Made by a program: the position numbers and the translations under genes. The notes beneath the pieces are model-generated. The model was not told where the DNA came from. It saw nothing but the letters and a program-made list of their open reading frames with translations, and searched no databases. A stretch of 64,000 bases of DNA from Chrysomallon squamiferum (Eukaryota; Animalia; Mollusca). The stretch is taken from positions 11,222,001 to 11,286,000 of the forward strand of contig CM022677.1 in NCBI GenBank assembly GCA_012295275.1, read 5' to 3'. Of this stretch, positions 1 to 60,505 are shown one piece after another; position 1 is the stretch's first letter, and each line of letters starts with the position of its first letter.

Positions 1-319
1 TAATACCTGAAAGCTGATGTGACTGGAGACGACGCCTGCATCTGCAACGATATTAGAAGTATCTGAAATTACTTATACTTCGTAAATGAGGCAGTGAGCT
101 GTCAGTGAGAGTGAATGCATTTTGAATTGACTCATTGACAACCGCTAGTTATCACTTGGTTGAAACATCAAGCATTGTTTACTTAATTGGACTAATTAGA
201 AATTTCGACGTCGAAAATTCAAATTACCAAGCGCTTTTAAAGAAGAAAAAAAAACGGATTACGAACGAAATGATGGCCGTGCAGTTTACGTATCGTTGTT
301 GAAGTGCATTTCGTACTAT

Positions 320-1070
320 ACTCTCCCAGCATTTGCTAGTGCTAGTACTTTGTGACACACCAGCACAAAGAAATGCTAGCAGAGTGCTAACGATGTAGTC
401 GTCCTAAATAAATCTGACTGCTTTTGTGATCTGTTTGCGGAAACAGCATTACTTCGCTCAAAAGGTATCGTTGTTGAAGTGCATTTCGTACTATACTCTC
501 CCAGCATTTGCTAGTGCTAACAAGACGTGAAACGCCAGCACCAAGAAATACTAGCAAAGTATTAAGGACGTGATGGTCGTAAATAAATTTGAGTGGTGTC
601 TTCTGTGATCTGGTAGCGGTTTGAGCATAATTTAGCTAAAAAGGAAAGGCTTTCAACCAGATGGTCGGATGTCCCAAAAAACGCGAAGAATCACCGCAGG
701 ATTACCTCCCAGCATTTGCTAGTGCTAGCTCAGTTTACAAACAAGCACGTGGCGAATACTGAGAAAAAATATGCCTGCGATTACGTTTCGAAAGATGCGC
801 GTAGAAGAGTTGTGAAGTAAAGCTCATCCGATACTCTCCCAGCATTTGCTAGTGCTAACAGAACGTGAAACGCCAGCACAACCAAATACAAGCAAAGTAC
901 TGATGTTGTCTTTCTCTTAATGTACGTAATGCGTAACTTTTCGTCATTTCGTCGTCTACTTGCGACGGCGATGTTTCGGAAGCGTAGCTGTCTATTCGAT
1001 AAACCTCCAGCATTTGATAGTGCTAGTTGTGTTTTACGTCACGAGCACGAAACAAATACCAGAACGTTTA
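320..1070 (-). ncRNA. Putative microRNA cluster, five hairpins (minus-strand copy)
   Basis: The conserved 22-mer reads ctcccagcatttgctagtgcta on + at 323-344, 498-519, 706-727 and 836-857, with a variant at 1004-1025. Each is followed by a loop and a variable complementary arm. Hairpins lie at about 320-385, 494-561, 703-770, 832-899 and 1000-1070. Stem mismatches become G:U pairs only on the minus strand. Confidence 0.75.
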
Positions 1071-1273
1071 GAAATAACATATCAGGAAATTGTCTCGTAC
1101 AGTTTACACACAAGCACGTGGCGAATACTGAGAAAAAATATGCCTGCGATTACGTTTTTGGGACATCCGACCATCTGGTTGAAAGCCTTTCCCGTTTAGC
1201 TAAATTATGCTCAAACCGCTACCAGATCACAGAAGACACCACTCAAATTTATTTACGACCATCACGTCCTTAA

Positions 1274-2271
1274 TACTTTGCTAGTATTTCTTGGTGCTGG
1301 CGTTTCACGTCTTGTTAGCACTAGCAAATGCTGGGAGAGTATAGTACGAAATGCACTTCAACAACGATACCTTTTGAGCGAAGTAATGCTGTTTCCGCAA
1401 ACAGATCACAAAAGCAGTCAGATTTATTTAGGACGACTACATCGTTAGCACTCTGCTAGCATTTCTTTGTGCTGGTGTGTCACAAAGTACTAGCACTAGC
1501 AAATGCTGGGAGAGTATAGTACGAAATGCACTTCAACAACGATACGTAAACTGCACGGCCATCATTTCGTTCGTAATCCGTTTTTTTTTCTTCTTTAAAA
1601 GCGCTTGGTAATTTGAATTTTCGACGTCGAAATTTCTAATTAGTCCAATTAAGTAAACAATGCTTGATGTTTCAACCAAGTGATAACTAGCGGTTGTCAA
1701 TGAGTCAATTCAAAATTCATTCACTCTCACTGTCAGCTCACTGCCTCATTTACGAAGTATAAGTAATTTCAGATACTTCTAATATCGTTGCAGATGCAGG
1801 CGTCGTCTCCAGTCACATCAGCTTTCAGGTATTATTTGCTTTTCTTCACATTTAGTTTTCTTCAACAGAAACTGTACGAGACAATTTCCTGATATGTTAT
1901 TTCTAAACGTTCTGGTATTTGTTTCGTGCTCGTGACGTAAAACACAACTAGCACTAGCAAAAGCTGGAGGTTTATCGAATAGACAGCTACGCTTCCGAAA
2001 CATCGCCGTCGCAAGTAGACGACGAAATGACGAAAACTTACGCATTACGTACATTAAGAGAAAGACATAATCAGTACTTTGCTTGTATTTGGTTGTGCTG
2101 GCGTTTCACGTTCTGCTAGCACTAGCAAATGCTGGGAGAGTATCGGATGAGCTTTACTTCACAACTCTTCTACGCGCATCTTTCGAAACGTAATCTCAGG
2201 CATATTTTTTCTCAGTATTCGCCACGTGCTTGTGTGTAAACTGAGCTAGCACTAGCAAATGCTGGGAGGTA
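1274..2271 (+). ncRNA. Putative microRNA cluster, five hairpins (plus-strand copy)
   Basis: TAGCACTAGCAAATGCTGGGAG occurs at 1316-1337, 1491-1512, 2117-2138 and 2247-2268, with variant TAGCACTAGCAAAAGCTGGAGG at 1949-1970. Each is the 3' arm of a ~66-71-nt hairpin (1274-1341, 1450-1515, 1904-1974, 2075-2142, 2204-2271). CNNC starts 17-19 nt downstream of each 22-mer. Confidence 0.78.
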
Positions 2272-3089
2272 ATCCTGCGGTGATTCTTCGCGTTTTTGGG
2301 ACATCCGACCATCTGGTTGATTTTGCCAACTTTATATGTAAATAAATGTTAGCAGAGTTTGGAAGACACAGTTGACATATTATGAAACGAGCCTATAAAA
2401 CGTTTTCTTCAAAATGGCAATATTAAAAAATCCAAAACTTTGGAACAATTTGACTAACTATTTTAAATATTTTGTTTCTGAAATCAGGATAAAAAGTTAC
2501 TCAACCTTGTATTTCCTAAACTGAAAATCACTTTTCAGTACCTAACAACTCCTCCAACAACAAAAAGCAACAAGAACAATAATATAGATAAAGAAAAAGT
2601 AACATTGATAATAACAATACTTGAAATATAAACGTAAGTTTTAAAAGGTATGACACAATAAAACCCCAAAAATTCAAAATATATAAATAAAATAATAAAT
2701 TTCATAATATGAAATCACATAACATATAAACCTTAAATATGTGTGTGTGTGTGTTGATAATAGATTTTAATTTATTTTGAATGTATTTTTAAAATCACCA
2801 TCCACAAACAATTTAAACCCTGTACACCTGTCATTTTAGACGCGAAACTCACATTATGTAATAAAAAAAGTTCCAAGCTATTAGCTCTGGTTGTAAAATC
2901 CTTGTGCAAAGATTAACGTTAGTAAAACAAACAGATAAAACGTATAAGTGAAAAAAAAAAATGTACTGCCATTAAAAAATGAAATAAAAATAGAAATAAT
3001 TCTAACAACAGAAATAAAATTAATAGATATTTTTGGATTATATAAAATTTTGTTTTCTCCTACAATGTTATTGCAGTTATCAATACGAA

Positions 3090-3983
3090 ATGGGAAAAGT
3101 AAGAGCGTCCAAGAAAAGGAAAGCACAGGATGATGAGTGCCCTGAAAAGCCTCCAAAAGGGCGAAAGATTTCCGAACGTGGAGAAACATCACGTAGAGGA
3201 CCAGGGACAACAACATCTAGGAAACGGAAAGCACAGGATGATGGGTGCCCGAAGAAGCTTCCAAAAGGGCGAAAGATTTCCGAACGTGACCCTGGAGAAA
3301 CATCACGTAGAGGACCAGGGACATCAACATCTAGGAAACGGAAAGCACAGGATGATGGGTGCCCGAAGAAGCTTCCAAAAGGGCGAAAGATTTCCGAACG
3401 TGACCCTGGAGAAACATCACGTAGAGGACCAGGGACATCAACATCTAGGAAACGGAAAGCACAGGATGATGGGTGCCCAGAGAAGCCTCCAAAAGGGCGA
3501 AAGATTTCCGAACGTGACCCTGTAAAAGCAGCATGTGGAGAAAGACCAGGGATGTCAACATCACCATCACCCAGCACTGCTGAATCAACACAACAGCCTG
3601 AATCAGATAAGTCACCTACTTGTTCTTTGTGTTCAGAAGCATTTTTAGATAAGTGTCATGCAGACTCGTGTTTACATGAATTTTGTTTCAGCTGTTTGGA
3701 GAGGTGGTCTAGAAGCAGAAGAAATTGTCCAGTTTGCTCTGCAGGATTCACCGCCATCGTGTACAACTTAAGAGATGGAAACTGCGAGATGTACACATTG
3801 CCACCTCTCAGAGTCAAAAGAGTCAGAAGACATTCTGCAGCTGGATTCATCAGACGTATATTTGCGTATATCGGTCGTATATTTACGTATTTTAGTCGTA
3901 TATTTAGTTCTCTGTTGTGGAAAATCTTATTTGTTCTAATTGAATTTTGTCTTCTGATAGGTCGTTTACTAGGATTTGTGTAA
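3090..3983 (+). CDS. C3HC4 RING-finger protein (TOPORS/ICP0-like RING) with basic N-terminal repeats and hydrophobic C-terminus; probable E3 ubiquitin ligase
   Basis: The ORF is uninterrupted. The first ATG is at 3090, just after an acceptor-like pyrimidine tract ending ttgcag (3076). RING: CSLC..DSCLHEFCFSCLERWSRSRRNCPVC..F..I, whose C-L-H-x-F-C-F-x-C-xxx-W-S pattern matches TOPORS/ICP0-type RINGs. Confidence 0.85.
   Translation: MGKVRASKKRKAQDDECPEKPPKGRKISERGETSRRGPGTTTSRKRKAQDDGCPKKLPKGRKISERDPGETSRRGPGTSTSRKRKAQDDGCPKKLPKGRKISERDPGETSRRGPGTSTSRKRKAQDDGCPEKPPKGRKISERDPVKAACGERPGMSTSPSPSTAESTQQPESDKSPTCSLCSEAFLDKCHADSCLHEFCFSCLERWSRSRRNCPVCSAGFTAIVYNLRDGNCEMYTLPPLRVKRVRRHSAAGFIRRIFAYIGRIFTYFSRIFSSLLWKILFVLIEFCLLIGRLLGFV
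3111..3521 (+). repeat. Coding tandem repeat, 114-bp (38-aa) unit, about 3.6 copies
   Basis: Units start at 3111 (108 bp), 3219, 3333 and 3447 (partial). Peptide RKRKAQDDGCPKKLPKGRKISERDPGETSRRGPGTSTS. Confidence 0.95.
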
Positions 3984-4162
3984 TATTAGAAACCTTACAA
4001 CGTTACTCTAGGTGTATTGCTTTAACTTCAGCTGGCATCCTTCTGTCATTGTTTTATTTTATGATGATGATAGTAACAGTAATAGATACAGACATTTATT
4101 TGTAAAATATTTATTTGAAGTTGGTAATATCTGCAGTGATAATAACATTCTGTCCCTTTTGC

Positions 4163-4180
4163 CCCAGCATATCAGTGCTA
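4163..4180 (+). promoter_or_regulatory. Candidate target site for the neighbouring putative miRNA
   Basis: cccagcat-atc-agtgcta is complementary to nt 13-20 and nt 1-7 of UAGCACUAGCAAAUGCUGGGAG. It lies 180 nt after the RING stop codon with no AATAAA/ATTAAA in between. Confidence 0.5.
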
Positions 4181-4621
4181 TAGGAGATTGTGTTGATGAT
4201 GTTGACGTGAAGCTGGTTATGCTCCTTGCAGCTCTATAACCCTTGAGAGGTGGGCTCAGGTTTGTATTGTTTTTTAATTAATAAGTACTAACATACAACC
4301 AAAATACTAACAATTAACATGAATACTAACCATTAACCAGGTAGTAAACGTTATATAGAGACATACACATACATCCATACAGACACATACGAATATCCAT
4401 ACAGACAGAACACACACAGAACTACACTAACATATATAAAAACATATATACACTCACACACAGAAACATATTAACATTTAACAAATACTAACCTTAACCA
4501 ATTAGTTACAATTACTAATAATTACCACATACTTATCTGAATACGTGTATAAACACAAACACACACACACATCAACACACACACACATTCACATACGCAC
4601 ATATTATTTTATAATTAAAAC

Positions 4622-4993
4622 AAATTCTAACCATTAACCAAATACTAAAATTTAACAAATACTAACTATTAACCAAATACTAACATTTAACAAATACTAA
4701 CCATTAACCAAATACTAATGTTTAACAAATACTAACCATTAACAAAATATTAACAATTAACCAAATACTAACATTTAACAAATACTAACCATTAACCAAA
4801 TACTAACCATTAACCAAATACTAATATTTAACAAATACTAACTATTAACAAAATACTAACCATTAACCAAATACTAATTTTTAACAAATACTAACCATTA
4901 AGCAAATACTAACATTTAACAAATAGTAACTATTAACAAAATACTAACCATTAACAAAATACTAACATTTAACAAATACTAACCATTACTAAC
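4622..4993. repeat. 17-18-bp minisatellite (CCATTAACCAAATACTAA / CATTTAACAAATACTAA)
   Basis: About 20 tandem units. Stray copies at about 4295-4340, 4470-4530 and 34353-34403. Confidence 0.9.
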
Positions 4994-5916
4994 ATCCCCT
5001 ACGTGTACTGAACCTCACCATGGTGTAGGGGTGGCAACATTTCCAAAGGGAATGGCTAATTAGTACATTAATATAACATTTAATTGGTTAGAGAGATAGA
5101 CAGATTGATAGATTATGATAAATAGATTTACCTACATAGGGTATTGCTATTTTTTCTAATTTTGAATACAGTGCTCTTGCTTTGAAAGCCCTTTCTATAT
5201 ACAGACAGACAGACAGACCAACAGAGTATAGACAGAAGTGTATGTACTTAAGAATAAGTTATGTCACTCCCCAGATTACTCTAATTAGATGGATTATTTC
5301 ATTTTACCAGATATTAATTGATAATTAAGTATGACAGGTTCTGTAATTAATGTGCTCTTTAACACAAACTGTTACAGACAACTTTTTATCTTATCATATT
5401 TACTTCTTATCAATAGATGAATGACTATGTTTTCAGTGTAGATTTCCAGATTAATGTTCTCTTCATAAACAATACCAGAAATCTCTAGTCTCTCATTAAC
5501 AATTTATTGGTACCTCCAGTCATGCCTCCCTCCTAACTCCATATATTCCTCATTTATATTCCACAGTTTATATATTACGCCAAATTCCATTGATATATCA
5601 CTCAATCCATGGGCCTACAATGAGGACCTTATTTGTTAACAATTGATAATGTCTGAAAAGTAATTGCTTGTATAATTGAAAACCTTTCTGTCCACCATTC
5701 CATCCTTTTATCCATTTATTACTTTCCCAATTCTTCTTTGCACCAAAACTTTCATCCATCCCCCCATCTAACACTCCATCCATCCTTACCTACCTGCATG
5801 TGTCTATCTATCTATCTGTCTGTCTATATATTTGTTTCATTTCTTCATCAATTTCTCTGACTATTTGTCTATCTATCTGTCTGTTTGTTGGTCGCACCTG
5901 CTCACCGCTTTCTCTG

Positions 5917-5947
<31 letters not shown>

Positions 5948-7067
5948 ATCTATCTATCTCTATATCTATATCTATATCTGTATATATATATATATATATA
6001 TATATGGAGAGTGACAGAGAGAGTAAGAAAGCCAGAGGGAAATATTTATATGTCATAACTTATTCTTAACACGTGCACTTTTTTCATACACATTTATATA
6101 CCCGTTCTCTGTAAAACATACACATCAATGTATCTATGTTATCTGTGTATATCTGTCTATATATGTACCTAATTATTGCCTACCTAACCTATCAATATAT
6201 CTCACTTTCTTAGTTAAACATAGCACTGTCTTTCGTGCACACATACAAACACACACACACACACAAACGTACATATACACACTCCCTATTTACATCCTTT
6301 TTAATTGTTTAAATACACTCTTTCTATCTATTTATCTATCTATAAATATATGTATTTATCTATGTATTTATACCACATACATAAGCAACAGACTCAGTCT
6401 TTCCTATAGATGTGTAGGTATAAACTCAAGCCTCCTTTCATCTATCTATCTTTCTAGTAATCTATCTAGCTTTCTTCTGTCTATCAATTTACCTGTCTGT
6501 TATCATCTACCATCTGTCCACCCTTTTATATACATTATACAATCAACTATCACACACACACACACACACAGACACGTGTAGGTAATATATATATATATGC
6601 AGGCATGTGTGTTTGTATATTATACACACATACACAAACCCATTCCTTAACACACATATCTATCTATATATCTATCAGTCTGTCTAAATATCAATCTACC
6701 AAACTAGTAACATACATACCTATTATATTATCTCTCTAGCTTATATGCCTATTTTTTAAAAACAATCTATCAAACATATGTCCAGCTCCCTGAATATCTA
6801 ACTATATATTACTTCAAAGCTCACTATCTTGCTGTATATCTGTATAACCTATATGTATTTCTCTCTGGATATCTACCTATACTCTATCTGTATTTACCTC
6901 TGTATATTTATCTAAATGACCTACCTGTATTTATTTCTCTATATCTGTCTGAATAATCTATCAGTATTTATATTGTATAGCTACTTATAATCTATCAGTT
7001 CATCACTAACTCAATCCAAACACAGATCCTCTCCTCTATGTTTGTCTGCGTGTGTTTGAGTCTGGCG

Positions 7068-7118
<51 letters not shown>

Positions 7119-7534
7119 GTATATGTTATATTCTCTATCTTAACGCTATTTCTAACATAAACATTTTCTTACACATATACATCCTCAAATCTACTGCCAT
7201 CCACTTTACCATTATATAACCTATCTTGCTTCACACCTATCCTTCTATCTATCTTTCTGTCTATCTATTGAACCTACGCACCTGCCTATCTGTTTAGCTA
7301 TCTATATATCTCTCTGTCTATCCTCAAAATATATATATATAATTTGGTATTTCTCATATATATATATATATATATCTACATTACATTCCATCAATAACCA
7401 TCCATAAATCACCTATTCATCTTCCTAACTATCTCCCTAAATAATTATAACTACTTTCTATATCTATCTTTCTGTGATACTGTCCATTTATAACTCTCAT
7501 TCACAATTCCCATATTTAGCTATGCTTATCACTG

Positions 7535-7596
<62 letters not shown>

Positions 7597-9055
7597 TCAT
7601 TTGTGTATGCATATGCATGTGATATCACCTATCTACATACATCTCCATATTTATGTCTATCTACACACATTTCCATATGTATGTCTATCTACACATATTT
7701 CAATATGTATGTCTATCTAAATATTTTCTCATAATCAATCTACATAGCGGTTATATAATCTGTCTAATCTTGTCCATCCATTGAAATCAATAACCATCAA
7801 TAACAGCTCCTTATCTACATCTCCTCTATATCCACCTACATATCTCCCTATTTTTCTGTATGTTTGCACACATATACAGTCAGTATATTCACACTCTTCA
7901 AAAAACACAAGCAAATTTTCCTTCCCATACATATGTATATACTATTCTCTGCTCCAACTTATGCATACCTACACCTGCATATACATTCAGTCTTCCACAT
8001 TACCATCCATACTTGCCTACACCCACCTGTCTCTCTGTGTCTCTCTGTGTCTCTGCTGTGTATTAGTTAACTATCTACATATATCTACTGAAGTACTGAC
8101 CCACCTACCTGTCTGTATCTTTGAGTGTTTGATATCTGTCAGATGCCTGTCTATATAATCTACATATCAACCTACTGATCTACTCACCTACATACCTATC
8201 TGTTTATCTATCCACATTACAACAGATCAATAACCATTCATCAGTCATCTCTCCAACACCCTGTCAAACTACCTACATACACAACTAACTGTGCCTGCAT
8301 TACAACCTGTATGATTTATATATACATCTGTACGTCTACTCAGCCTGGCACACAAAACACACATGACAGAAAGAAGAATACACAGAATAGATAGATGGTC
8401 ATTGTCATGTTTACCTATCTACCTCAATTCATCTACATTTATCAATTCATTTGTTAACTTCTACTGATCTAGCTGTCTATCAATCTATCAATATATACTT
8501 CTTTTTCTTTGTATCTTCCTGTTTATCTCTTCACCTGTTAACCTTTCATCTGACAGTCAGTCTCATATCTCTGTCAATCATTTCTCCATTCCTTTAAATC
8601 ATTTACAGCTGCTCTCAAGTTAATTGCTAATAATCTTTATGAAAACAACATTAATCTGGAACCTGCTCTCTATTTAAAAATATCATTGCTCCACATATTT
8701 TCATTTCTTCTGCAATAATTTCTAATTTGCAGTGTAGAACCACACATAGCTTTTGTAGTGTCCTTAGTCATTATAGAGGAAGTTGTTAAGTCCTTTCCTG
8801 ATAAACCAAGAATCATCCACTGTTAACTTTTGGAGAATAATGAATGAATCAAACTGATATTGTTAATAACTTCTCTGTCTGGAAACTGCTTTGGAAAGAA
8901 AACTCCATAATTAGTCTCAATGTTTAAAGTAACCTCTATATTCTTCTCCATATTATTGTTACTGAAGCTGATTCCAGAATATTGTCGTTTCTGTAGATGC
9001 AATAATAAAATTTAATTGAATAATTATTTAAAAGTAATTTTCCATTGTGTTTAAT
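4960..9055 (+). repeat. Segmental duplication block A, copy 1 (paralog about 34355-37490)
   Basis: Colinear shared anchors, e.g. ctaacatcccctacgtgtactgaacctcacc (~4989/~34401), atgtccagctccctgaatatctaactatat (~6778/~35841), ctcagcctggcacacaaa (~8339/~37160), actgaagctgattccagaat (~8961/~37400). Confidence 0.9.
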
Positions 9056-9180
9056 TGTCTGATAAATAACAAATAATTTAAACAAAAATATAGATCTATA
9101 AAAAGGTATCAAAATTGTAAATTTTACATTCTGGTCAAAAAGTACAAAATCGGACATAGACTTGACAGTATCCACCTGTA
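8610..9180 (-). pseudogene. Possible decayed coding exon(s), product unknown
   Basis: Non-repetitive island with acceptor-like sites (ctacag ~8991, ttacag ~9176). It reads KRQYSGISFSNNNMEKNIEVTLNIETNYGVFFPKQFPDREVINN before stops and frameshifts. Related fragments at about 35076-35234 (inverted) and 37353-37459. Confidence 0.3.
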
Positions 9181-9741
9181 AATTGAAAATAATTAATTAT
9201 CTCCAGCCAATGAAAAATGTGAGGTATTTTAGTTAAATAACTAATTGACATTTTCTGTCATTTATTAATTGTTTGAGATAAGTCTCTTACGATATCACGA
9301 TTTCGAACAGTTTACAACAAACCTCATCTTACAAACTTCCCGTCCATAACTTTAATTACATGTTTCAGAACTCGAATGTTTTGGGTTTTAACGAAAAAGA
9401 GTGAAAAATTAATTTTTAAGTAATTTTTTAAACAGGCCGGTTGGCGGACCTTTAAATTATAATTTTTTAAATAAATTTTCTGTTGTAAAACCGGTATCAA
9501 GCATCATAATAAATGTGCCTAGGCAATCATTCAAGTAACACGCGATCAGTTTCCTTTTTTCACGTAAATACCACCTGTAATGTATTGAAAATGAAAACAA
9601 ATATTAAAATAAAAATATAATGGTTTCAAGTATTGTTTTACAACTACGTACTCAGCACTGTCCGCTGTGGAGTTTTAGCAGAGTAAGTGTTCACATTATG
9701 TGTCTAATGAGAATATTCATCCACCAGCGTCAGTGAAAACA

Positions 9742-9783
<42 letters not shown>

Positions 9784-10370
9784 TTTATTTTTTTTTATTT
9801 ACTTATTTGTTTCTGGCTGGCGACATCTAAATACTATCTGAAAAAAAAAAATCTAGTAAGAAATGGGTAAGAGATAGTATGACGTCAAAGTTACCAAAAA
9901 AATATAGTAAATAAATAAATTAAAAATTGGTTTCGACCTTTGAAGCAATTACTACTCAATAATAGACATCTATGTACAAACGGCATTACTTATATGATGT
10001 ATTTCCCCAAATTACTTTTAATAATCCATATAGACTTGATTGGATGTTTAAAAGTTTGTAAACACTGATCGGCGTTCGACGCTGCCATCTTCGATTTCAT
10101 TCGGAGGTTTCCGTGATCGCTCGGAAACCGTCTGATCGGGTTTTTGAACTTCTAATTTCAACTTTTTTACGTCTATTTTCTTAACTTTTTTATGATTTGT
10201 CAATTAGATTTGCGCTGATAAAGGTAATATATTACCAAACCATGATCTCCTGCGCTTTTCCTAAGTACTTTTTCAACTTAATCAAACTTTTATTTTTATG
10301 CAAATGCGTGCATAATAAACTGAAATTATAATTTGTTATAAGATTACTGTATTAACTTTTCCAGTTGGCA

Positions 10371-10553
10371 ATGTTCCCCAACAGAAACGAAGATTCAGGT
10401 TTAGTTTGTACCAATAAATCGGTGAAAGTCTGGAAGTATTTTGACTGCCTGACTTTTAGAAGTTTGTGGTCAACGGGAAATAACTCATTCGACGACAGAG
10501 ACATTCAGCCAATGGAGGTTGACCCATTTGAGGAACCCATGGATACATCATGA
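10371..10553 (+). CDS. Candidate 60-aa small ORF with acidic C-terminus (PMEVDPFEEPMDTS)
   Basis: Acceptor ttttccag at 10364, ATG at 10371, TGA ending 10553, then AATAAA/A-tract at about 10577-10620. Upstream are a donor-like aaag/gtaata at 10223 and a CpG-rich patch with GCCATCTT at about 10065-10140. Confidence 0.35.
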   Translation: MFPNRNEDSGLVCTNKSVKVWKYFDCLTFRSLWSTGNNSFDDRDIQPMEVDPFEEPMDTS

Positions 10554-10786
10554 GTATAAGGCAATTCTACTATCTTAATAAAAAAAAAAAAAAAAAGATA
10601 AAAAAAAAAAAAAAAAATAATACGCATTATTAAACGTTGATTCATTATTCAACTTGTTAGATTCGTTATACCTGTTAATGAAGAATTAAGCTTATTATTT
10701 ATTTATTTATTTATTATGCAAAATAAAATGATCTAATATTGTTAATTAAAAAACAATAACTCTGTTTTTCAATACACTGTGTTTTC

Positions 10787-11062
10787 AATACATAATATTA
10801 CCGCTACGCCTCTGTTTACAACATAAAACATGTAACATAAACAGTGATGGCGGTACTGAAGTTGTATCTTATTTTCATAACGTCGTGTAAAATTACTCCT
10901 ACTTAGTTGTTCTGTGAAACAAATTCTGTTAATAAAATATCACATTAGTATGGACGCGTTCTCGATATTCACACATAATTCTACTGTTGTTTATAAAACC
11001 ATTTTTGTTTACATAAAAATAAAAAGGTGGATCTGAGTCAGACATTTATTTTAGACGCTCAA

Positions 11063-11152
<90 letters not shown>

Positions 11153-11621
11153 ATACAAAATTATGGCTTACATTTATTCTAAGTTATTATGTAGGTCAGA
11201 GATGTATACTTAAAATATAAAAGTCACATTTTTCTACATTTAAAACTAAATCTCTGAAACTGAGAATTGAAAAAAACAAACATAAAATGCTGCAGGGAAA
11301 TAGAGAGTTGTGTACCCTTTTATCAACAGTAGCTGACGAGTTGATGCTTGGCTTATATTCTACTGGAATAATTTAGAAACTGAGAAATATAGCGAGTTAG
11401 ATTTCCAGATTCATGTTTTTAATACATACTATTACCACTACGCCTCTGTTAACAAACATAAAACATGTAACATAAATAGTGATGGCGGTTCTTATTTTCA
11501 TAACGTCGTGTAAAATTACTCGTTCTTAGCTTTTCAGTGAAACAAGTTCTGTTAATAAAATGTCACATTAGTATGGAAGCGTTCTCGATATTCACATATA
11601 ATTCTACTGTTGTTTATAAAA
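10787..11621 (+). repeat. Local direct duplication of about 200 bp (10787-10998 and 11421-11621)
   Basis: Shared ctacgcctctgtt...cttattttcataacgtcgtgtaaaattactc...gcgttctcgatattcaca...ctactgttgtttataaaa. Confidence 0.9.
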
Positions 11622-11949
11622 ACATGCTAACCTGGAAGCCCAATCTATATTTCTGAATGTACACAGAGTTTTCACGGTAAAAATCACACCAGTAATGTTT
11701 AGGCTAGAATACTGTTTTTTCGTGGGGTGTTTTCGTGTTGTTTTTTTCTCTTCCTGACAGAAGTGGTAATAGAAGAAAGTATCATTTTAAATTCCTGGCA
11801 AAGCGTTGGGTATATTTTACAAATATACTTTTTCTAAGCTGGAGTCAGTGAGGTGGAGAAAGATGAAGGTGATTTTCATTAATTACACCACAGATTGTGC
11901 TTTTAATTAGTGTTCTGCTAATTAATATTTATTAAGTATACTTTAAGAA

Positions 11950-12090
11950 ATGTGGTACTTGTTCGTCCTATACAACGGCGAGTGTTTTGTGAAGAAACGT
12001 TTGGGTGAAACTTGTGAAGACAAGTCGGGCTGTGCAGACGTGTAGCTGACTGTCTGGATAACATGTGTTTCGTCAAAAAAAAAATCTTTT
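11950..12090 (+). pseudogene. Frameshifted Cys-rich (EB/EGF-like module) exon remnant
   Basis: Reads YNGECFVKKRLGETCEDKSGCADV*, then in a shifted frame ADCLDNMCFVKKK. The CFVKK motif repeats with Cys spacing typical of extracellular EB-like modules. Confidence 0.3.
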
Positions 12091-12983
12091 TGACAGTTTT
12101 GTTCTTCCAAAATCAGTGTCGAGTCATGATAAAATTGGAATTGGAGTAATTACTGAAACACGAAATTTTGACGTACAGTGAAGTTTTGTAGACGTAATTT
12201 GTGACGTTGGACAGAGTTTATGTTCTATAAACAAATAAGATTTCAGTTTCATATGAAGAAACTGAGGTTCAATAAAAAATAGCATGATATAGTATAAAAA
12301 ATATATGCTGAAATAATCATTTCATTTCCTTTTTTCTTTTTCTTTTTCCCTTGTTTCAGTAGTCTTTCTTAATTATTATTTTATTTATCATTTTAATTAG
12401 TATTATTGTAGTTTTTGTTGTGTTTACAAAAATAAATAAATAAATCAGTTCAGACTGATATTTTAAAAGTTTCTGGTGAGATTTTATTGATAACCGGAGA
12501 AAAAACATTCTGATATTATTGTTATATTTTAATCGGATGAAACAAACGATATATTTCTTCAAGCTAAGTAAAAATATCCTCGTATCTCATAAAACACTAG
12601 TTCAGGAGGACAGGCATGTTTTCTATGATGTAACTTACAAATGTTAACTATATAAGATTTTTCCTAGTAGAATAAAATGTAACTAAGTGAAATTATCAGT
12701 ATTTTTTTATATTCATTTCAAAATGTTCACCTTTTCCTCTATTTTTTATTTAACATTATCTTTTATTTTTATTTTTTATTTAACCTTTTTATTTTCATAA
12801 ATAATAGAAAATTAATTGCAAAAGTAATTTAAAATAATTAATTTTAAAATGAACATATGACATTGAAACTAGTTTTATAGGAGATACACAGAAATTATAC
12901 AAACTGTTAGGGAGATGCACATAAAGAAATTGTTAAAGCTGTATAGAATGTATGGATTGGTAGAGAAACAGATGAACAGATGT

Positions 12984-13035
<52 letters not shown>

Positions 13036-15654
13036 AAGGAAATTTGTGTTTTGTATGTTTCCAGAGGGCACTGTAGGACAAATAGATGCAGGCACAGATA
13101 GACTGATGTGAATGTGAAAGGATGAGTTGGTACATACATGTTATTTGTGAGAAAGAGTTAATGTGTTTGTTGTCAAATAACTGCTGTATGTGAAAGTGTC
13201 CTTGTTTATGTATAAATAAATACAAGTTCCAAGTGTCTTGATTGTTGTTATTTTAATGATTTATTATTATATTATTGTCCCGATTTTAAATTGTTGTATT
13301 AACATTGAAAGATACTTGAAAATAGCTGAAATTGATCCATTAAAACAATTATTTTAGCAAAACCAAATATTTTTTAAAACAGATTTGCAGTAATTTTTAT
13401 TTTAAAGAAAATGAAAATGAAATTATCTATGTCTATATTAATAATGATAATAATAATAATAATAAAATTTAAAAGACTTAAAATTTAATTTGCTTGATTA
13501 TGGCTTCATTATGACAGTCTATGACATCAAATAAAACTGAAATGGGTTCATAAAAATTCTTACAGGCATATGTCATTATAATTCATTATCATAATGCATC
13601 GTTAGAAAAGTTCGAGATTTATAGTGTATATGTTGTATGAAAAATTCATTGTTTTTACTCAAGGGACAAATTGAAAAAAATGTTTTCTGCAAAATAGGAA
13701 TTTTACAGTAATTAATTAAGAAATAATAACAAACAAACCAGCTTTAATTTTCATTCTGCTTGGAAACATATTAAATACAAAATTGTACTTCATTTTCTAA
13801 AGAGATTAATATTATTTTCTTTTATTTATTTATTTATTTTTTTTTTTTTTTTTTAAATTCCTTATTGAAATAGTTATATTATTCTTTCTAAAATGGGAAA
13901 GGCAAATTATAAAAAGCAGCCAGAAATGTCTAAACGGAAATAACTGAGTATTTAAGTTTTTTTTATCTAGACAGGTTTTTAAGTAATTTCAACTTGAAGA
14001 TCATCATGTTTGTTCTAATTAAAAATAACAAAGTCATGGTTAATGCAAATAAAAGTTTAATTTAATTAACAGAAATATATTATTATTTTTTATCCAAAAA
14101 ATTCTAATTACCTCTAATTAGTAAAGCTTCAATTATATTTACACTAATTACCCCCATCAAACCCTTGATTTAGCCCTGTTTTAAATACTATAATGATTAC
14201 ATAATTTTAAATATATTTACAGTCATTTTTTACCCATGCAAAACCCTGAATTTCCCCTGAATTAAATAATATAAAAATAAGATGATTATAAAAATTAACA
14301 TGTCTATGCACTATCACATTAATTTTAGCTTGTTTACAAAAATGGCATTCCATAGCAATGATGAATCTCTATTCCTCTTTCAGCAATAAAAAGTTAAAAT
14401 AACCAAGCACAGATCAATGATAAAAACAGTGCAAGCTGCTATGAAGTACAATGTGTACACTGGATGTTCTGATCACATTGACAATGCAGTCTCTTGGAGA
14501 TCACTGAGTGTTTGAAATTCAAATTACATTTGTGACAGATTTTCTTTTGAAAGTGTTGTTCTTTCTCTGGACAGGGAAGACTGTGATGTAATAGCATTCT
14601 AGTGCTCTAGTGAACCTTGTCTGAAAATGGGTCTTACAGCATTTTCAACTGAAGTGCTGGCTGAGGCAGCTTGAATCTGTTGTCTAGGATCCTACAACAA
14701 AATATAATATTCATTAATAAACTAATCATAAAATAAAGCAGTATTTTTGTTGTCGGCTCTAACTGCATTTCACTGTCTTAGCAAGAAAAAGTTTAGTACA
14801 CATTTTTAGTTTTTCCATTCAATTTTTGATAATAAAAAAAATTATTAAACGATTTTCCAGTCTTAATTTCAATCAGTTTAATTTTATTTTTTAAATTTGA
14901 AATAAAAGGATTAAAATACTTCAGTAAAATATGTTTTAATATAATTGAATAATTCTATTAATTTGTTAAAATTTGATATTTACACTGTTTTAGTATTTTA
15001 GTCCAGTTTAAGATGACTGCCAGGAATATTAAGTAAATAAACATTTTACACCTATATAGTATTAGACAGTAAGAAAATGGTCTTCTAATACTGTTTCTAC
15101 TTGAAATATCTAGCATGATGGAAATACATTTGAGATTATTCTTACGATCTTTAATTAACCTTTAACAACCGTTACAGTTACATCATTTATAATAAAATAT
15201 TTGATTAATTAAAATCTTGAATTGTAACATTCTTTCCTGCCACTTTAATATAATTTAATTTTGCCACTAATGAATAAATCAATCACAATTATCCTGCTAA
15301 TAGTTACAATAATGATTCCTGTGTGTATTTAAAATGAAGTTAAAATGTATTTAAAACAAAGACAATGTTGTAAGACACGCGCTCTGTGTGTGTGTGTATA
15401 GTAACAAAAATAAATAATATAAATCTCAAAGATCATGCAAGCTTCTATTTTATTATTTTTTATTAAGAACTAACTATGGAAAATACAATTTATTACCTAA
15501 TGAGTTTCAAGCTCTTTAATTCAGAGTTTTGTCCCTTGGTAGTATAAACAAAGACTAAGGGCACCATCAGTTTCAATCTTAAATTTAAATAAAACAGGCC
15601 TGAGTATTTTGTACAAAGCATTTAAACATATAAACTGATAACCAAATATTTCTT

Positions 15655-15993: not shown

Positions 15994-18305
15994 AGACCGT
16001 CACTACCCAACAGCTACAGACCGATCACACTGACGTCACACATGTGCAAACACTGGAAACGATGATCAACACACGCCTGAGCCAGCATCTAAACAACAAC
16101 AATTTAATCAGCAAATATCAAAGTGGCTTCAGGAAGAAACACAGCACAAACAACCAGATCACCTGTCTGCAAACATCAATCAACCAATCTTTTAGGAAAT
16201 CAAAAAAAGTCATTGCAGTATTCCTAGACATTGAAAAAGCCTTCGACATGGTATGGAGGGAAGGATTGCTCGTCAAATTATTCAACAACAACATCAAAGG
16301 CAACAAGTTCAACTTCATTAAAGACTTCATCAACAACAGATCCACCAACTGAACTAATAAACACAGCACTCTTTACAGACAACTGCGCCTTTTGGCGTGC
16401 AGGCAGAAACAAATACAAAAAGACCTAAACAACATAAATGACTGGGTGTTGAAATGGGGCATAAAGATTTCTCTTTCCAAAACGACATGCCTCCTTTTCA
16501 ACAAAAAAACAGACAACAACAAAATCACACTAAACATCGACAACAACGTCATAACACTAACCAAAACATTCAAATTTCTAGCAAACATTCGACAGCCAAC
16601 TCAACTTTGGATGCCACATACACAACATAATTGCATCCTGCAGAAAAACACTCAATCTTCTAAAACTAATTTCCTGAACCAGTTGGGCAGCAAACGAGTC
16701 AATGCTAATTTTGATATACAAAACATGTATTCTCTCCAGGCTCGACTACAGAGCCACAGCTTAATTCAGTCCAGCGCCCTCAGAGTGATCAGCCACCTCC
16801 AAAACACAACACCACCCAACAGCCTCCTGTCAGAATACTGCATCCAACCACTGAAATACAGAAGAAATCTGCAGCTACTGAAATACAACCTGAGAATACA
16901 CACCCTCAACGCAGACCATCCCATCAAGGATCTGGTCCCCGACCAACAAAGAATAAGGCAACTCTTTAAATCGCATAGTCTACTTTTATCGAATTTCCTG
17001 ACAACAGCCAACAAAATCGAAAGGGAAACACGAATAGGGGTAATGCCACTGCTGGCATACCACAAAGAAACAAAACCAGCAATAAACACACCTTTCCTAA
17101 TAAAAACAGAAACAGACAAACCAGAGTTCCCACCGTTCAAAAAGGCCATATTTCTTGCAGCAGCAAACGACCACTACGAACAACACCCGCACATCTACAC
17201 CAATGGATCCAAAAACCCAGACAACTGGAGAGTAGGATTCGCCTTCATAGCCCAAGATCACACAGACAAACCCACATGCATACAATTCAGCAATATCAGA
17301 AATCACCTTTCAGTATACATGGCGAATTGGTCGCCATCATCAGAGCCATGCTGTGGTTGAAACACAACAACAACAAACATACAGTCATATTCTCAGACAG
17401 CCTAAGTTCCGTCATCTCAATACAATCCAGACATTCCAGCAGACCAGATCTACTCAGCAGAATACAACAACTACACCAGGACATACAACACAACAACAAA
17501 CAACTAATCATCAAGTGGCTCCCAGCACACGTCAACATCATCAGCAACGAACTTGCCGACCATTACACCAAAGAGTCACTCAGCATTAAAGACGAAGACA
17601 TCTGCACTGACATACACTATGGAATAAACGAAATTATCTCCATCGCAGCCAAATATTATGACAAACAGTGGCAAAACGAATGAAACAACACCAAAAACAA
17701 ATGGCACTTGAACATCAAACCACTCACCAAAACACCCAAAATCACACTTGCCAACAAACTACACAACAACAATCTCACCAAAGCCAGAATTGGTTACTCG
17801 ACCAACTTAAATGCAATCCGATACAAATATCACAACACCACATCACCAAACTGCAGCTGTGGACTCTCCGAAACCATGAAACACTACTTGTTTCACTGTC
17901 AAAATTCCGCCAAGGAAAGACAAGCACTACGCAACACATTGGAGGAACTAAAAATTGAGTTCACGCTCCGAAACATCTTGGCACCAAACACGAAAGACAG
18001 AGAGTTAGTCCTTGCTGCAGTAACAACATACATTCTGAACACAAAACACAAACTTTAGACTCTTTTTTTCTTCTTTTTTGACACAAAACCAAACAACAGT
18101 TGAATGAATTTATTGATTTACAGATTGGTTGGTTGAACAGCTGATGGATCGATGGATGGATCGGCTGACTGACGGATCAGTTTGAATAGCCAATTAAATT
18201 AATAATTGAAAACAAAACTATACGTACTATATGTACTTACATTCAGATTATACTAACCCGGTTATTGGTTTTTTTCTTTTTTTAAAACGTGCATAATAAA
18301 TAATT
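15994..18305 (+). mobile_element. 5'-truncated, decayed non-LTR retrotransposon with RT, RNase H and CCHC finger (I/Nimb/Ingi-like group)
   Basis: RT motifs SYRPITLTS, QSGFRKKHST, VFLDIEKAFDMVW, degenerate LFTDN (FADD) and KT..LLF. RNase H motifs IYTNGSK, ELVAI, IFSDSLS and WLPAHVNIISNELAD. C-terminal CSCG..ETMKHYLFHC. Multiple frameshifts; the QG-motif region is deleted near 16345. Confidence 0.92.
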
Positions 18306-49319: not shown

Positions 49320-51454
49320 GATCATCACTGCCACTTCCAAAGTGGAATTTACATGTCTTGATGTTGAGGGTTGTCAAGATTCTCATCATCATCTTCTAAG
49401 GTGAGTGAGATATCAGGAACTGATGGTGACGGTGGCAACATACCTGGGTGAGCAGTTGTTGAGGGCAGTGGATGTGCATATGATGAGGAGATCTCGGTGA
49501 GCAAATTGACGTCTTCTCTGTTACAGGCTTTGTAGCCAGTTTTATTTTAATATAACTGGCAAGCTGACCTGTTTCTTTTATTTTGGTCTTTCTTTGATTA
49601 GTTTATCGTCCAGCATGTAAATATACATTATGTCTTGCTCAGTTATAAAACTGCGCTGCTCTAAACCTTTTAGCAGTTCACCTGTCAGCTGAATTAACCG
49701 ATCAGTAGAAACTCTTTCTGCTGCATCATCCTCATTTCCATCACTACTTTCTCCTTCACTGGCTTGTTGCTCTGGACTTACAACCATTCGTACAATTTCT
49801 GAGTCCGTATAATGATTAACAACAGATGCATCGTCATCAACAGTCATCCTTTCTTCAGTGTTATCTTCATCCAGTTTATCCTTCGCAGCAGGATTGGTCA
49901 GATCACTCGCAAAAGACAACAGATCACTTGTATGCTGTTTGTCCTTTGAAGATTTCTATAAAGATTTTCATCAGGTGCTGTCTCATATGTTAATCCACAA
50001 TTTGTGCCATCCTTGTTTCAGTGTAGCAGGCTCTACAGATTTCCAAGCATTAGCAACACAGTAAACCACATCTCTCATTATATTCACGAATAAACTCACG
50101 TACAGGCTTCCCAGAGTTAACTTCACTCAGCAGGCGCCTCATAAAATGAGTGCAATACTTCGACTTTAATGAATGTAATATTCCACTGTCCAGGGGTTGA
50201 ATCAAGGAAGTGCAGTTAGGTGGAAGATAGATACCGAAAACATTGTTCTTTACCAGGAGTTCTGCTTTTGGATGAGCGGAGCAGTTATCCAAAATAAGCA
50301 TTATCTTACAATTACAGTCCAAGCCAACAGAGTCAGAATGAGCTCTTGCTTCGGGGACAAAACAGTTCTGAAACCAATCCAATAACAGTTCAGTTGTTAT
50401 CCAACCTTTTTTGTTGGCACGGTAATTTACAGGAATCTGTGTCATGCCTGTGAAAGCTCGAGGACGTAAACTTTCACCGATGACCAGTAACTTACACCTG
50501 CGTGTTCCTGCCGCATTGGAGCAGCCCAGCACAGTAACACGGTCTTTCGAAGCTATATAACCTGTCGGCGATTCTGTATCCTCCGATTTCAGTGTTCTTT
50601 TGGGCGTACATTTCCAAAAGAGTCTCATCTGCGTTATAAACCTGGTCAAGACTTAAATTTTCATCACTGACCAACTTGGTGAACTCGTCAACAAATTTTG
50701 TAGCTGCTTCATTGTCAGCTGATCTTTTTCGCCACACACTGCACGAAACTTTAAGCCATGTCGTTCCTTAAAACGTTGCAACCATCCTTCACTGATGTTC
50801 CAGTCCGAGTTCTTCATGAAATAGTTTTGCTTGTTGCTTCACAAGATCACCTGACAGTTCGACGTCTTCACTTTCACGCAACTTAAACCACCTCGTCATT
50901 ACTTGATCTAGTTCTGCATTTTTACCACGTTTCATTGTTTTCCTTTTAAACATCTGTTTTTTCGACTCACTGTCAACAAAAAATTTAAGTAACTTTTCTT
51001 TTTGTTTCTTTATGTCATAAAATTCACATAAACCTCTCACAGACACGCCATTGTCAAGTCTTTTCTGCTATGGACAATGTTCAGTGTTTGCGCTTAACAC
51101 CACAAGAAGCACTTCTATTATTCATTGAAGCCATGATTGGGGCTAAAAATGACCTTCTTACAATAACAAATGTCAAAAATCAAACCGGAAAAGCTTGCCT
51201 GTGTTTACAGCTGGTACCAGTTTGTTGCTGATAAAACAGCGCCTCCAGTCGTAGCGGCCAGTCAACTTAAAGAAAACATAACACAGCTTCTCTAACCCGA
51301 ACAGAGCGCACACACTGCACGAGGACAGTATCATACAGCACAAGAATCGATCACAGAATCGATAGTGCCGCGTGAGTCATCGCCTAGCATCCCCCTTCGC
51401 CTTAGTCAGTTTTAGTGCCGGATTACTGATTGCCGGACTAGTGATGTCAACCCG
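49320..51454 (-). mobile_element. Decayed Tigger/pogo-family transposon (CENP-B-type HTH plus DDD transposase)
   Basis: ATG at 51134 (MASMNNRSASCGVKRKH*TLSIAEK), HTH region ELDQVMTRWF..LSGDLVKQQA, and catalytic motifs VYNADET, LILDNCSAHP and LPPNCTSLIQPLDSGI, split by frameshifts. The 5' end reads TA-CGGGTTGACATCACTAGTCCGG. The other TIR was not found, so the left boundary is approximate. Confidence 0.92.
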
Positions 51455-57945: not shown

Positions 57946-59348
57946 TTACTGTTTACACCATGTAAATATTTTTATTTCATTGTTATCTTTCACATAGAGT
58001 TTGTTGTTATCACAACAGACAGACAAAGGTTGTGACAGGCCATCCTGGCGTGTGAGGATGTCACGTGTAATGTTACCATCTCGTGACAACTGAACAACAC
58101 AATTTCTATCTTCACTACAAACAAAAACATTTCCCTCCCTGTCACATGTAACACCTGTCAAGTCTGTCAGTTTGTCTGAATCACGTGACTTCCATTTGAC
58201 GTCACCTGATGACGTCACACAAACTACACTGTTTACAACTGACACAACAATCAGACATTGATCGTGAACTGTGAGACACGACGGTCTGGGGATCAAATCT
58301 GTTGAGATAGAATTAATGAGCTGACCACTGTCTGTCAGTATGTCCAAGCACTGACTAAAGTACCCAGTGACCGCGAGACGGTTGCCAGGTAACACAGCGA
58401 TAAACTGATACTTTTTAACAGTTTTAACCTTTTTTATCAGTTTGAAGTTTTCCAAATTTAAAAACAATATTTTACTTTCCCGTGGCAGAGCAACAACAAG
58501 AACAACATCACCCCGCAGATCACGTGATTCAGCAAGACCGCGTGGTTTAGAGGAAGTGTTGTATCTTTTTATCAGTGATTTTCTTTCTAAACAAAAACAT
58601 TTTACACATTCATTGTTATAATCACCAACAACAATTTTACTTTTGTCTGCACCTGACACCAGCAGGGAAACCAGAAAAGGATTCAATTTATCTTCTTGTG
58701 TTTTTATGTTAATGGTGTCTGTGTGTTTAAGTGTGTATGTCTGTCTGTCTATCTGTGTGTCTGTGTGTTGTGTTTTTGTGTTAGTGGTGTCTGTGTGTTT
58801 GAGTGTGTCTATATGTGTGTCTGTTTGGATGTTTGTGGATATTTCTCCAATGTGGATTGACATTTCTACCTTTTTATCAGATTTTATCAGATTTACTTTA
58901 AACTTTGCTTTTTCTATTTGGGAAAGAGATTTGGACAGAAACTCGGAAGTTTGGTTTTGAAGTTTGGTGAATTTTGAAATATTTATTTTTATCTCAGCCT
59001 CTGATTCACATTGTAACAAATCTTTACCTAGTGTAATCATTTTTTCGTTTTCTTCAATCAGATATTTATGTTCAGTAAACAGTTTTTCTATTTCTGAGTT
59101 TACAAAGTTCTGAGATTTTTCTATTTCTCTTATTAACCTGTCTTGTTCTTTGTGGACTGCGGCAGTAAAATCTGTGATTAGTGTGTTACCAATCCTTCTG
59201 ACCTCTTCTGTAGTGACCACGACGTTGATGTCGATGGCTTGGCGAAATTGCTCAATCTTATCATCCATCTCTGTCTGAAGAATTTCTTTAAAGGTTTTGA
59301 GACTTTCAGAAACAGAACTCAGAAGTGACATGTAATCTCCCTTTTGAG
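57946..59348 (-). CDS. TRIM-like E3 ligase, coding exon 2 (coiled coil, T/H/D-rich linker, NHL-like beta-propeller)
   Basis: Long open frame. Acceptor tatttcag/ at 59349-59350. A heptad-rich helical segment is followed by blade-like repeats (IVVGDYNNECVK, PRGL, PSCLTV, LTGVTCDREGNVFVC, PLSVCCD). Confidence 0.88.
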
Positions 59349-59620
59349 CTGAAATAAATAAATAAATAAATAATCAATCAGTGAATTAATTAATTAACTA
59401 GGACTACTTATTATTAATAAAGATATGTCTACAATGTGATGTTTTAGAATTTATTTTATCAACTACTTTAAAAATCTGAGTAGAGAAATGTCATAAATAA
59501 AATGTTCTCAATTGCTTTAGACTGTCATGATTAACACAAATATCTATAGTTAAACAATCACTAAATGTTTTTTTTTAGTATTTTATTGTAACGAATCTAA
59601 ACACAACACTGCTGACTCAC

Positions 59621-59906
59621 AAAACTTTGATTGTAGCCGATCATTAGCAGCGTCCTGTAGTGAATGGTTTATAGGGAATTGATCTGCCCATGTATTCACT
59701 GGTTTCGTGCTGTCTGGGATGTGGACATCCTGCCTGCAGAACGGGCAGGTGATTTGTGTGTCGTTGTTGTCGTAATTATGACTTATATAGTCCTGCAGGC
59801 ATTTGCTGCAGAACGAATGTCCACAGTTTAACATTCGCGGCTTCTTGAAAAGTTCCGTACAAATGTAGCACGAAAGTTTATCATCGGAGTTTGCAGCTGT
59901 TGCCAT
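59621..59906 (-). CDS. TRIM-like E3 ligase, coding exon 1 (RING-HC)
   Basis: MATA...CYICTELFKKPRMLNCGHSFCSKCL...ITCPFCR...FPINHSL is a TRIM-type RING with its FPxN motif. The donor T/GTGAGT at 59620 (phase 1) splices in frame to 59348 (..KF-S-QKGDYMSLL..), giving about 562 aa. Confidence 0.9.
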
Positions 59907-60505
59907 ATCTGTGAATAACAATAACAACAACAACAACAACAACAATAATAATAATAATAATAATAAATATTTAGAGATAACAAAGAACACGAGTTGAAAA
60001 CCACTGACTGTAGTAAGAAAACAACAAAATAAACATCTGAGTGCACAAGAATGCTGCAAGGTAATTTCGCTAGTCATGCTCCAACTCGTAGGTGTAAAGT
60101 AAAAGAAATGGAACCTTCAGCGAAGTAATGTATTCTGTGTAATAATTATAACGTCAGGTTTCAAAATCTCAGAATAAACAAATGACATTGCTACTGAATA
60201 ATAATAAAAAAAATAATAATAAATAAATAAATAAACATATACGATATAACAAAGTTTTAAATTTTATTTTAAAATTTGTTGTATCGTAAGCCCTGCAGGT
60301 AATTTCTCAGTAGTAGTGATGGTAAATAAATCTCTAAATCGATATTTTTTTCTTAATGAAAAATGTAATATCCGGAAATAGTTCTGTAGTCCTCTGCAAT
60401 TTCAACTTGTGACTGAAGTTGGTTTTGACAGACGACACACAGTGAGAAGAAGATACCAACTCAAAAAAGGAACGGTTGTAAGCTTCAGTGCTTATCTTTC
60501 TTTTG

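Follow-up and report, generated by a model that had tools for sequence, protein, structure and literature searches.

A tandem array of predicted microRNA hairpins in a snail genome, very probably related to embryo-expressed oyster microRNAs

The window, by which we mean the whole 64-kb stretch of snail DNA that was analysed, carries at its left end ten hairpins that share a 22-nt 3' arm. The arm is matched ten times at three mismatches or fewer, where chance predicts 0.00 matches; eight copies are exact and both variants retain nt 1-8, as the original prediction had stated. A covariance model of the hairpins found no additional copy in the 64-kb window. The features are given below, with the evidence for each in brackets.

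1-1105 (-): inverted unit copy in the other phase (Y then X), truncated by the window start (inverted repeats of 99% and 98%)
323-1063 (-): five inverted predicted pre-miRNAs (22-mer matches, folds, covariance model)
323-344 (A), 498-519 (B), 706-727 (C), 836-857 (E) and 1004-1025 (D, one change at nt 9) (-): inverted mature arms
1100-1157 (-): inversion junction, a 58-bp copy of 2186-2243 with microhomologies of 6 nt and 5 nt at its two ends
1183-2320 (+): full 1138-bp tandem unit, forward copy; the block including a 28-bp overlap spans 1155-2320 (head-to-tail joint)
1280-1337 (+): predicted pre-miRNA type B, 58 nt, an E-like duplicate, with predicted mature arm 1316-1337 (fold, anatomy, grouping)
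1455-1512 (+): predicted pre-miRNA type A, 58 nt, an E-like duplicate, with predicted mature arm 1491-1512 (fold, anatomy, grouping)
1637-1790 (+): promoter-like block of putative function (alignment with the second-genome contig L001, motif places)
1827-1832 (+): splice-donor-like site (counterpart at the matching place in L001)
1911-1970 (+): predicted pre-miRNA type D, 60 nt, with predicted mature 3' arm 1949-1970 (fold, anatomy)
2081-2138 (+): predicted pre-miRNA type E, 58 nt, with predicted mature arm 2117-2138 (fold, anatomy)
2211-2268 (+): predicted pre-miRNA type C, 58 nt, with predicted mature arm 2247-2268 (fold, anatomy)
2318-2320 (+): right end of the array (3 nt shared with multi-copy flank, loose ends at 2318)

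Five of the 22-mer copies lie on the minus strand, between 323 and 1025, and the other five, between 1316 and 2268, on the plus strand, a split on which the original prediction was silent. In reverse complement, positions 1-680 match 1155-1834 at 99% and positions 674-1105 match 1869-2300 at 98%. The blocks run from Y to X on the minus strand and from X to Y on the plus strand, and this opposite order means that the two strands hold different phases of one 1138-bp tandem unit; forward and inverted copies differ at 13 of 1112 positions. Five hairpins per unit had been claimed at spacings of 130-210 bp. The number holds, and so does the spacing for four of the five intervals (168, 130, 207-208 and 175 bp), while the fifth is a gap of 458 bp. 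The copy at 1949 is a variant through an A at 1962, where the contigs of all four runs read T; thus, the A in the window is peculiar to this copy or stems from an error in the assembly.

The tandem arrangement is seen directly in the sequencing runs. In the DNA run X1, a joint leads from 2292 to 1155, a back-step of 1138, at a word depth of 1486, and the identical head-to-tail joint occurs in contigs of X2, X9 and X10, that is, in all four runs. The unit contigs of X1 have depths of 1418-1510, compared with about 33 for the shallowest long flank contigs among those listed, making them about 45 times deeper. Another X1 contig, of 535 bp and depth 8, joins diverged unit pieces (1630-1740 and 2178-2305) in a different order and is read as an orphan or older unit copy. 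There would be about 45 units if a depth of 33 represents a single copy, about 23 if it represents one allele and about 190 if a depth of 8 is single copy, with a hairpin total of roughly 100-900; all of these are orders of magnitude only, because the depth of a contig does not equal its copy number and the flank, too, is multi-copy. Indeed, the flank from 2335 to 15554 is multi-copy throughout in X1, with summed depths of 215-1339 in every bin and many joints; since this holds for the whole 14 kb, the array edge sits in a segmentally duplicated region. The right-edge flank has different upstream sequence in X1 and X9. Among the contigs listed for the four runs, none crosses 1100-1157; the inversion is likely a real template switch, which the microhomologies favour, and an assembly artefact is the alternative. 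Two further runs, X12 and X17, yielded near-identical unit pieces only, at depths of 2-4, and we rejected these as relatives, considering them likely traces of the same species. In X15, diverged hairpin contigs at depths of 557 and 95 carry changes in the E loop, and depths summed over the hairpin bins come near 8000-10000; these observations hint at a further high-copy relative.

The DNA around the array is of animal type and rich in AT; it contains microsatellites, RING genes, a LINE and a DDE transposase. An intronless C3HC4 RING ORF lies at 3090-3983 (+) and includes a 114-bp (38-aa) repeat, 3.6 times over; it is multi-copy in X1 and was found at a depth of about 305 in the RNA run X9 and not in X10. 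Homologue searches for two RING ORFs, including this one, gave no match. A TRIM-like gene at 57946-60116 (-) is split into two ORFs, a RING followed by a coiled coil and a propeller-like part; its ORF 57946-59373 had 18 matches, the named ones all from Gigantopelta aegis with 41% identity at best. The host is probably a gastropod akin to that snail, on the evidence of this one fast-evolving protein family. The window also holds a broken LINE with reverse transcriptase and RNase H (15996-18058, +), a broken DDE_1 transposase (49578-50652, -), an A/C-rich minisatellite of 17/18 bp (4548-5058) and, near its end, degenerate telomere-like repeats of the TTAGGG type (62990-63620). The unit at 1183-2320 has 41% GC and CpG at about 1.2 times expectation; the corresponding values for the rest of the window are 31% and 0.55.

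The arm recurs in a second genome, in L001, a contig of 1767 bp and the only metagenome contig matched. Its first 155 bp recur at its end, and this terminal redundancy indicates a 1614-bp tandem unit, which contains ten hairpins, all on one strand and with the shared arm; its CpG ratio is 0.27. The spacers of the window and of L001 are unalignable, the best local scores being 12-15 (four window against nine L001 spacers). The window types D, E and C correspond to a repeating triplet of L001 in equal order: D groups with hairpins 496/894/1287 through 5'-side matches, E with 625/1017/1410 and C with 756/1149/1542, the last on a long branch with support of 96/96 and as the sole group with starred support. 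As judged from sequence comparison, the combination of a conserved arm with an independent unit in a second genome supports a real array.

The anatomy of the hairpins was examined in 15 distinct hairpins, the five window types and the ten of L001, with ends predicted from the fold. In all 15, the precursor is 58-60 nt long, the predicted star 22-25 nt, and 18-20 of the 22 nt of the mature arm are paired. Folding on both strands, a check that the original prediction had suggested, gave the more stable structure in the sense orientation for all 15 hairpins and all ten window copies, with a sense z of -2.1 or lower in nine of the ten, in agreement with the proposed selection on one RNA strand. 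For the stem at 1274-1341, counted earlier by hand at 25 of 27 positions paired and seven G:U, RNAfold returns 27 pairs with eight G:U; across the 15 hairpins, G:U makes up 91 of 493 pairs. A CNNC motif starts 17-19 nt past the arm in 13 of the 15 (background 9-19%; the copies are related, not independent) and, as had been noted, in all five window types. UGUG, which the original prediction had placed at the start of two loops, straddles the border of 5' arm and loop in types A and C, and UGUG or UGU lies at the loop border in several of the 15, while a basal UG at -14 is present in just one.

Pairing is retained in 95.1% of cells, a value as high in none of 500 shuffles and falling to 28-58% when slid. 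Two-sided compensatory changes are found in 2 of 19 pairs, which 395 of 500 shuffles reach; few such changes are as expected when one arm is frozen. Mature nt 1-17 are invariant in 14 of the 15 hairpins, and in 15 of 15 with the read majority, leaving a single deviating cell, while loops and spacers vary freely. Two features of a canonical animal miRNA gene are present: an imperfect hairpin close to 60 nt long that pairs 16 nt or more and has a predicted 2-nt overhang geometry, and a mature arm that is better conserved than the star, the loop and the flanks. We have hardly any doubt that the hairpins are real miRNA genes.

Upstream of types D, E and C lies the promoter-like block, with a CCAAT at 1645, a forkhead-like site at 1653, TATAA at 1758-1762 and an initiator-like site near 1787. 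The alignment of 1637-1762 with L001 78-197 scores 59, whereas 1000 shuffles reach 34 at most; CCAAT, the forkhead-like site and TATAA are common to both genomes, and in the window the initiator-like site lies 29 nt further on. The donor-like site at 1827-1832 may mark the end of a short first exon, and each 1138-bp unit is likely a complete miRNA gene made of promoter, short first exon and five hairpins. The RNA runs X9 and X10 contain no spliced contig or splice joint; they cover the unit flatly, at depths of 23 and 5, running through promoter and joint, and flat cover of this kind is explicable by DNA carry-over and indistinguishable from DNA. There is no AATAAA in the window unit, and a sigma-70 promoter scan, irrelevant to the array, gave no match.

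Database comparisons place the arm outside the named families compared. Rfam gave no gathering match in the window and no mir-29 or mir-430 at E up to 10, so that the arm does not fall in the miR-430/427/302 family; the 25 sub-threshold matches of L001 include neither mir-29 nor mir-430, and a single mir-2012 match in the window was dismissed as being at chance level. A viral origin was likewise rejected. Viral contigs hold no match over 19 nt and 18 single 17-nt matches that look like chance, with a best model score of 18.7 bits against 66-99 for true hairpins; only one of the 18 had at least 18 nt paired, at -16.8 kcal/mol. Prokaryote genomes had no match to the arm. No mature sequence with the start of the window arm appears in the portions seen of the adult mollusc small-RNA tables of PMC11067994, a paper on Biomphalaria haemolymph has miR-29 only and no match to the window arm, and the parts consulted of PMC13544226, PMC12506671, PMC12261956 and PMC7488030 gave no match or were uninformative. 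MirGeneDB 3.0 is described, in the sections consulted, as holding one family for Mollusca, one for Conchifera, two for Gastropoda, three for Lophotrochozoa and seven oyster-only novel ones (PMC11701709). Judging by names only, the present family may already be there, for example as Mgi-NOVEL-2 to -8 or MIR-12588. In a literature search that covered subscription journals thinly, we found no paper that unites these sequences as a family or describes such a mollusc array, and the papers retrieved with the exact sequence were unrelated.

The Pacific oyster provides the closest relatives. The comparison used the precursor and read tables of PMC4138081 (supplement files 3 and 5, consulted in part), in which 11 precursors have the word AGCACU within their 3' arm: four of the 19 novel miRNAs (m0214, m0314, m0317 and m0347) and seven excluded candidates (m0215, m0316, m0338, m0341, m0342, m0345 and m0348). 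We left out m0324, which has the search word but an unrelated 5' arm and is read in adults. The 11 lie in clusters on scaffolds 1827 (two), 370 (three) and 392 (six), and the seed AGCACU stands at nt 2-7 in ten of them, the called arm of m0338 being truncated and unread. Identity to the window arm, counted by eye, is 18/22 for m0342 and m0316, 17 for m0214, 16 for m0317 and 15 for m0314. A single random 22-mer reaches 18/22 with P of about 7e-8, or with P of 2e-4 once its first seven nt are fixed; beyond the 7-nt start, 11 of 15 nt are identical in the best oyster arms.

The oyster reads show when such arms are made. According to the tables of PMC4138081, the ten 3' arms that are read have 0-3 reads in the egg, are present from blastula to D-larva, and have no reads from umbo larva to juvenile or in any of the eight adult organs. 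Two of them, m0314 and m0214, peak in the blastula at 741 and 107 RPM, while m0317 has 287 RPM in the blastula and 374 in the trochophore (PMC4138081). Star-arm reads exist too, and both arms have homogeneous 5' ends per those tables; identical arms share reads, some reads come from a mixed late-larval library, and the sampling was without male gonad (PMC4138081). That study labels the group oyster-specific, and the parts of its main text that were consulted do not mention m0214 or m0215 by name (PMC4138081). The oyster group agrees with the snail hairpins in having the mature sequence in the 3' arm, the seed at nt 2-7, similar 5' arms and a clustered arrangement. It differs in forming clusters of two, three and six hairpins over 1-4 kb of an old assembly, with no homogenised promoter-bearing array reported in the parts consulted, and its arms vary at the first base and at nt 8 (A or U), unlike the uniform snail arm. 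On balance, the snail arm is very probably homologous to the oyster family. Accordingly, of the lineage-specific, high-dosage array like miR-430/427 that the original prediction proposed, the array layout stands and the lineage specificity does not, since the family extends to the oyster and possibly to an annelid.

We consider the best overall explanation, and moderately the more probable one, to be a zygotic high-dose miRNA array resembling miR-430/427 in action with an unrelated seed. The seed of the snail arm differs from that of miR-430/427; the first bases of the arm (1316-1323) would be reverse-complementary to the seed region of miR-430, giving the two families mirror-image target sites, which may be coincidence. 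RNA polymerase II would start near 1787 in every unit, and Drosha and Dicer would free the 58-60-nt precursors and then the 3' arm with its 5' U. Argonaute would load this 22-nt arm, with seed AGCACU(A), onto AGUGCU(A) sites in 3' UTRs. With tens to a few hundred units, the miRNA could accumulate rapidly at genome activation, and maternal mRNAs would be cleared in the early embryo, as they are by miR-430 and miR-427. All hairpins would yield nearly one mature sequence, which means that the array multiplies dose and not targets. By analogy with the oyster, expression in the embryo or early larva of this species is probable. The zygotic onset in the oyster makes clearance through AGUGCU(A) sites the most likely role, and by the same analogy we lean slightly towards clearance as the main one; oyster reads extend into the trochophore, the D-larva and the mixed late-larval library, and so the role may postdate maternal clearance.

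The same reads bear on a different reading, in which the zygotic array is real and its main job is larval, in trochophore-to-veliger differentiation or timing. The oyster 3' arms are abundant in trochophore and D-larva, m0317 is higher in the trochophore than in the blastula, and the authors of the Capitella study, in the sections consulted, propose metamorphosis for early novel miRNAs (PMC8915122). However, m0314 and m0214 peak at the blastula, and the promoter-bearing, high-copy layout is tied in fish and frog to speed at genome activation, as far as those sources were consulted; a mainly larval job seems to us rather unlikely. We give still less weight to the possibility that real miRNAs were amplified for the germ line, for instance the testis, in the manner of rapidly evolving gonadal clusters, or that their copy number reflects neutral turnover of duplicated DNA rich in repeats. 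All 14 kb of the flank are multi-copy, the junction microhomology is typical of unstable regions, and the oyster sampling did not include the male gonad; but the oyster female gonad has no reads in the tables, two genomes have different units that are both tandem, and a mature arm with 17 nt invariant in 14 of 15 hairpins is frozen rather than fast-evolving.

On a last view, the locus is no miRNA gene and consists of a satellite or a piece of non-autonomous transposon, whose internal repeats form hairpins by chance or because they are palindromic DNA. High-copy tandem DNA in a repeat-rich window, the lack of an Rfam family, and RNA contigs in X9 and X10 that cannot be told from DNA would suit such an element. 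Against it stand the strand bias of folding in 15 of 15 hairpins with fixed precursor length and CNNC spacing, conservation of a single arm with free spacers across genomes, homologous oyster small RNAs sequenced together with their star arms (in the tables consulted), and the fact that just 1 of 18 chance viral 17-mer matches had at least 18 nt paired. We regard this view as very improbable, and the zygotic high-dose array remains our preferred reading.

In the literature we searched, no miRNA regulator of maternal clearance was found described for molluscs. The locus supplies a mollusc candidate, with a seed and a target site, that is linked to published embryo-restricted oyster reads, and the question of clearance can be addressed with existing oyster developmental transcriptomes. 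If the preferred reading is true, the tandem design of promoter plus triplet evolved anew in an animal that is no vertebrate, and a miRNA family conserved in molluscs was overlooked because adults do not express it.

Among the named families, MIR-29 resembles the snail arm at its start. Its mature 3' arm also begins UAGCAC, and its seed differs at nt 7 only. That position is U in all 15 hairpins, against the MIR-29 seed AGCACC, which places the arm outside MIR-29. The likeness to miR-29 noted in the original prediction is right about the one-base seed difference and stops at the seed region: by eye, 9/20 nt are identical to oyster miR-29-3p, for which the tables consulted give reads at every stage and in adult organs (PMC4138081).

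A tandem cluster of 3' arms on scaffold_488 of the annelid Capitella teleta is expressed in the embryo and was likened by its authors to miR-430 (PMC8915122, in the parts consulted); 8 of 13 confident rows among those listed start UAAGCAC (PMC8915122). It shares with the snail array the AGCAC core, the mature 3' arm, the tandem order and 5' arms that end alike, and differs in a seed shifted by one base and in 3' halves that are diverse among members. The best member among the rows listed agrees in 17/23 columns by eye, at edit distance 6 from the window arm, a distance reached by 20 of 300,000 random 22-mers (7e-5) and by 0.9% of those with the shifted seed; as homology, the annelid link is suggestive. 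Further novel AGCAC-core miRNAs lie on scaffolds 183, 6, 60 and 324, and one confident entry shares the first eight bases of the window arm and diverges further on (PMC8915122). It is conceivable, though we hold it only tentatively, that an old and overlooked AGCAC-core zygotic family of molluscs and annelids has the miR-430 role in spiral-cleaving embryos and that the snail evolved a miR-430-type promoter-dense array independently. Such an array would rank with the earliest transcribed loci and might nucleate a transcription body.

MiRNA-driven clearance of maternal mRNA is documented, in the parts consulted, in zebrafish, Xenopus and Drosophila, animals that employ unrelated miRNAs for it (PMC10368294). 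The vertebrate arrays differ from the present one in their hosts, here a protostome, and the clearance role and transcription body would extend to the snail by analogy. The sources were seen in part: in zebrafish, each miR-430 unit combines a promoter with two or three a/b/c triplets, with more than 300 promoters over 0.6 Mb (bioRxiv 10.1101/2021.08.09.455629), and miR-427 comprises 171 tandem precursors in both orientations in one Xenopus species (PMC10569791, PMC10368294). The multi-copy zinc-finger neighbour at 3090-3983 recalls the setting of zebrafish miR-430 (bioRxiv 10.1101/2021.08.09.455629). Tandem units with several hairpins and a promoter-like block, a putative promoter, are present in both genomes studied here, and the likeness to miR-430/427 lies in tandem units with a promoter-like region and repeated triplets, copy numbers in the tens to hundreds, blocks in both orientations in the window and early zygotic expression, the last seen here for the oyster homologues.
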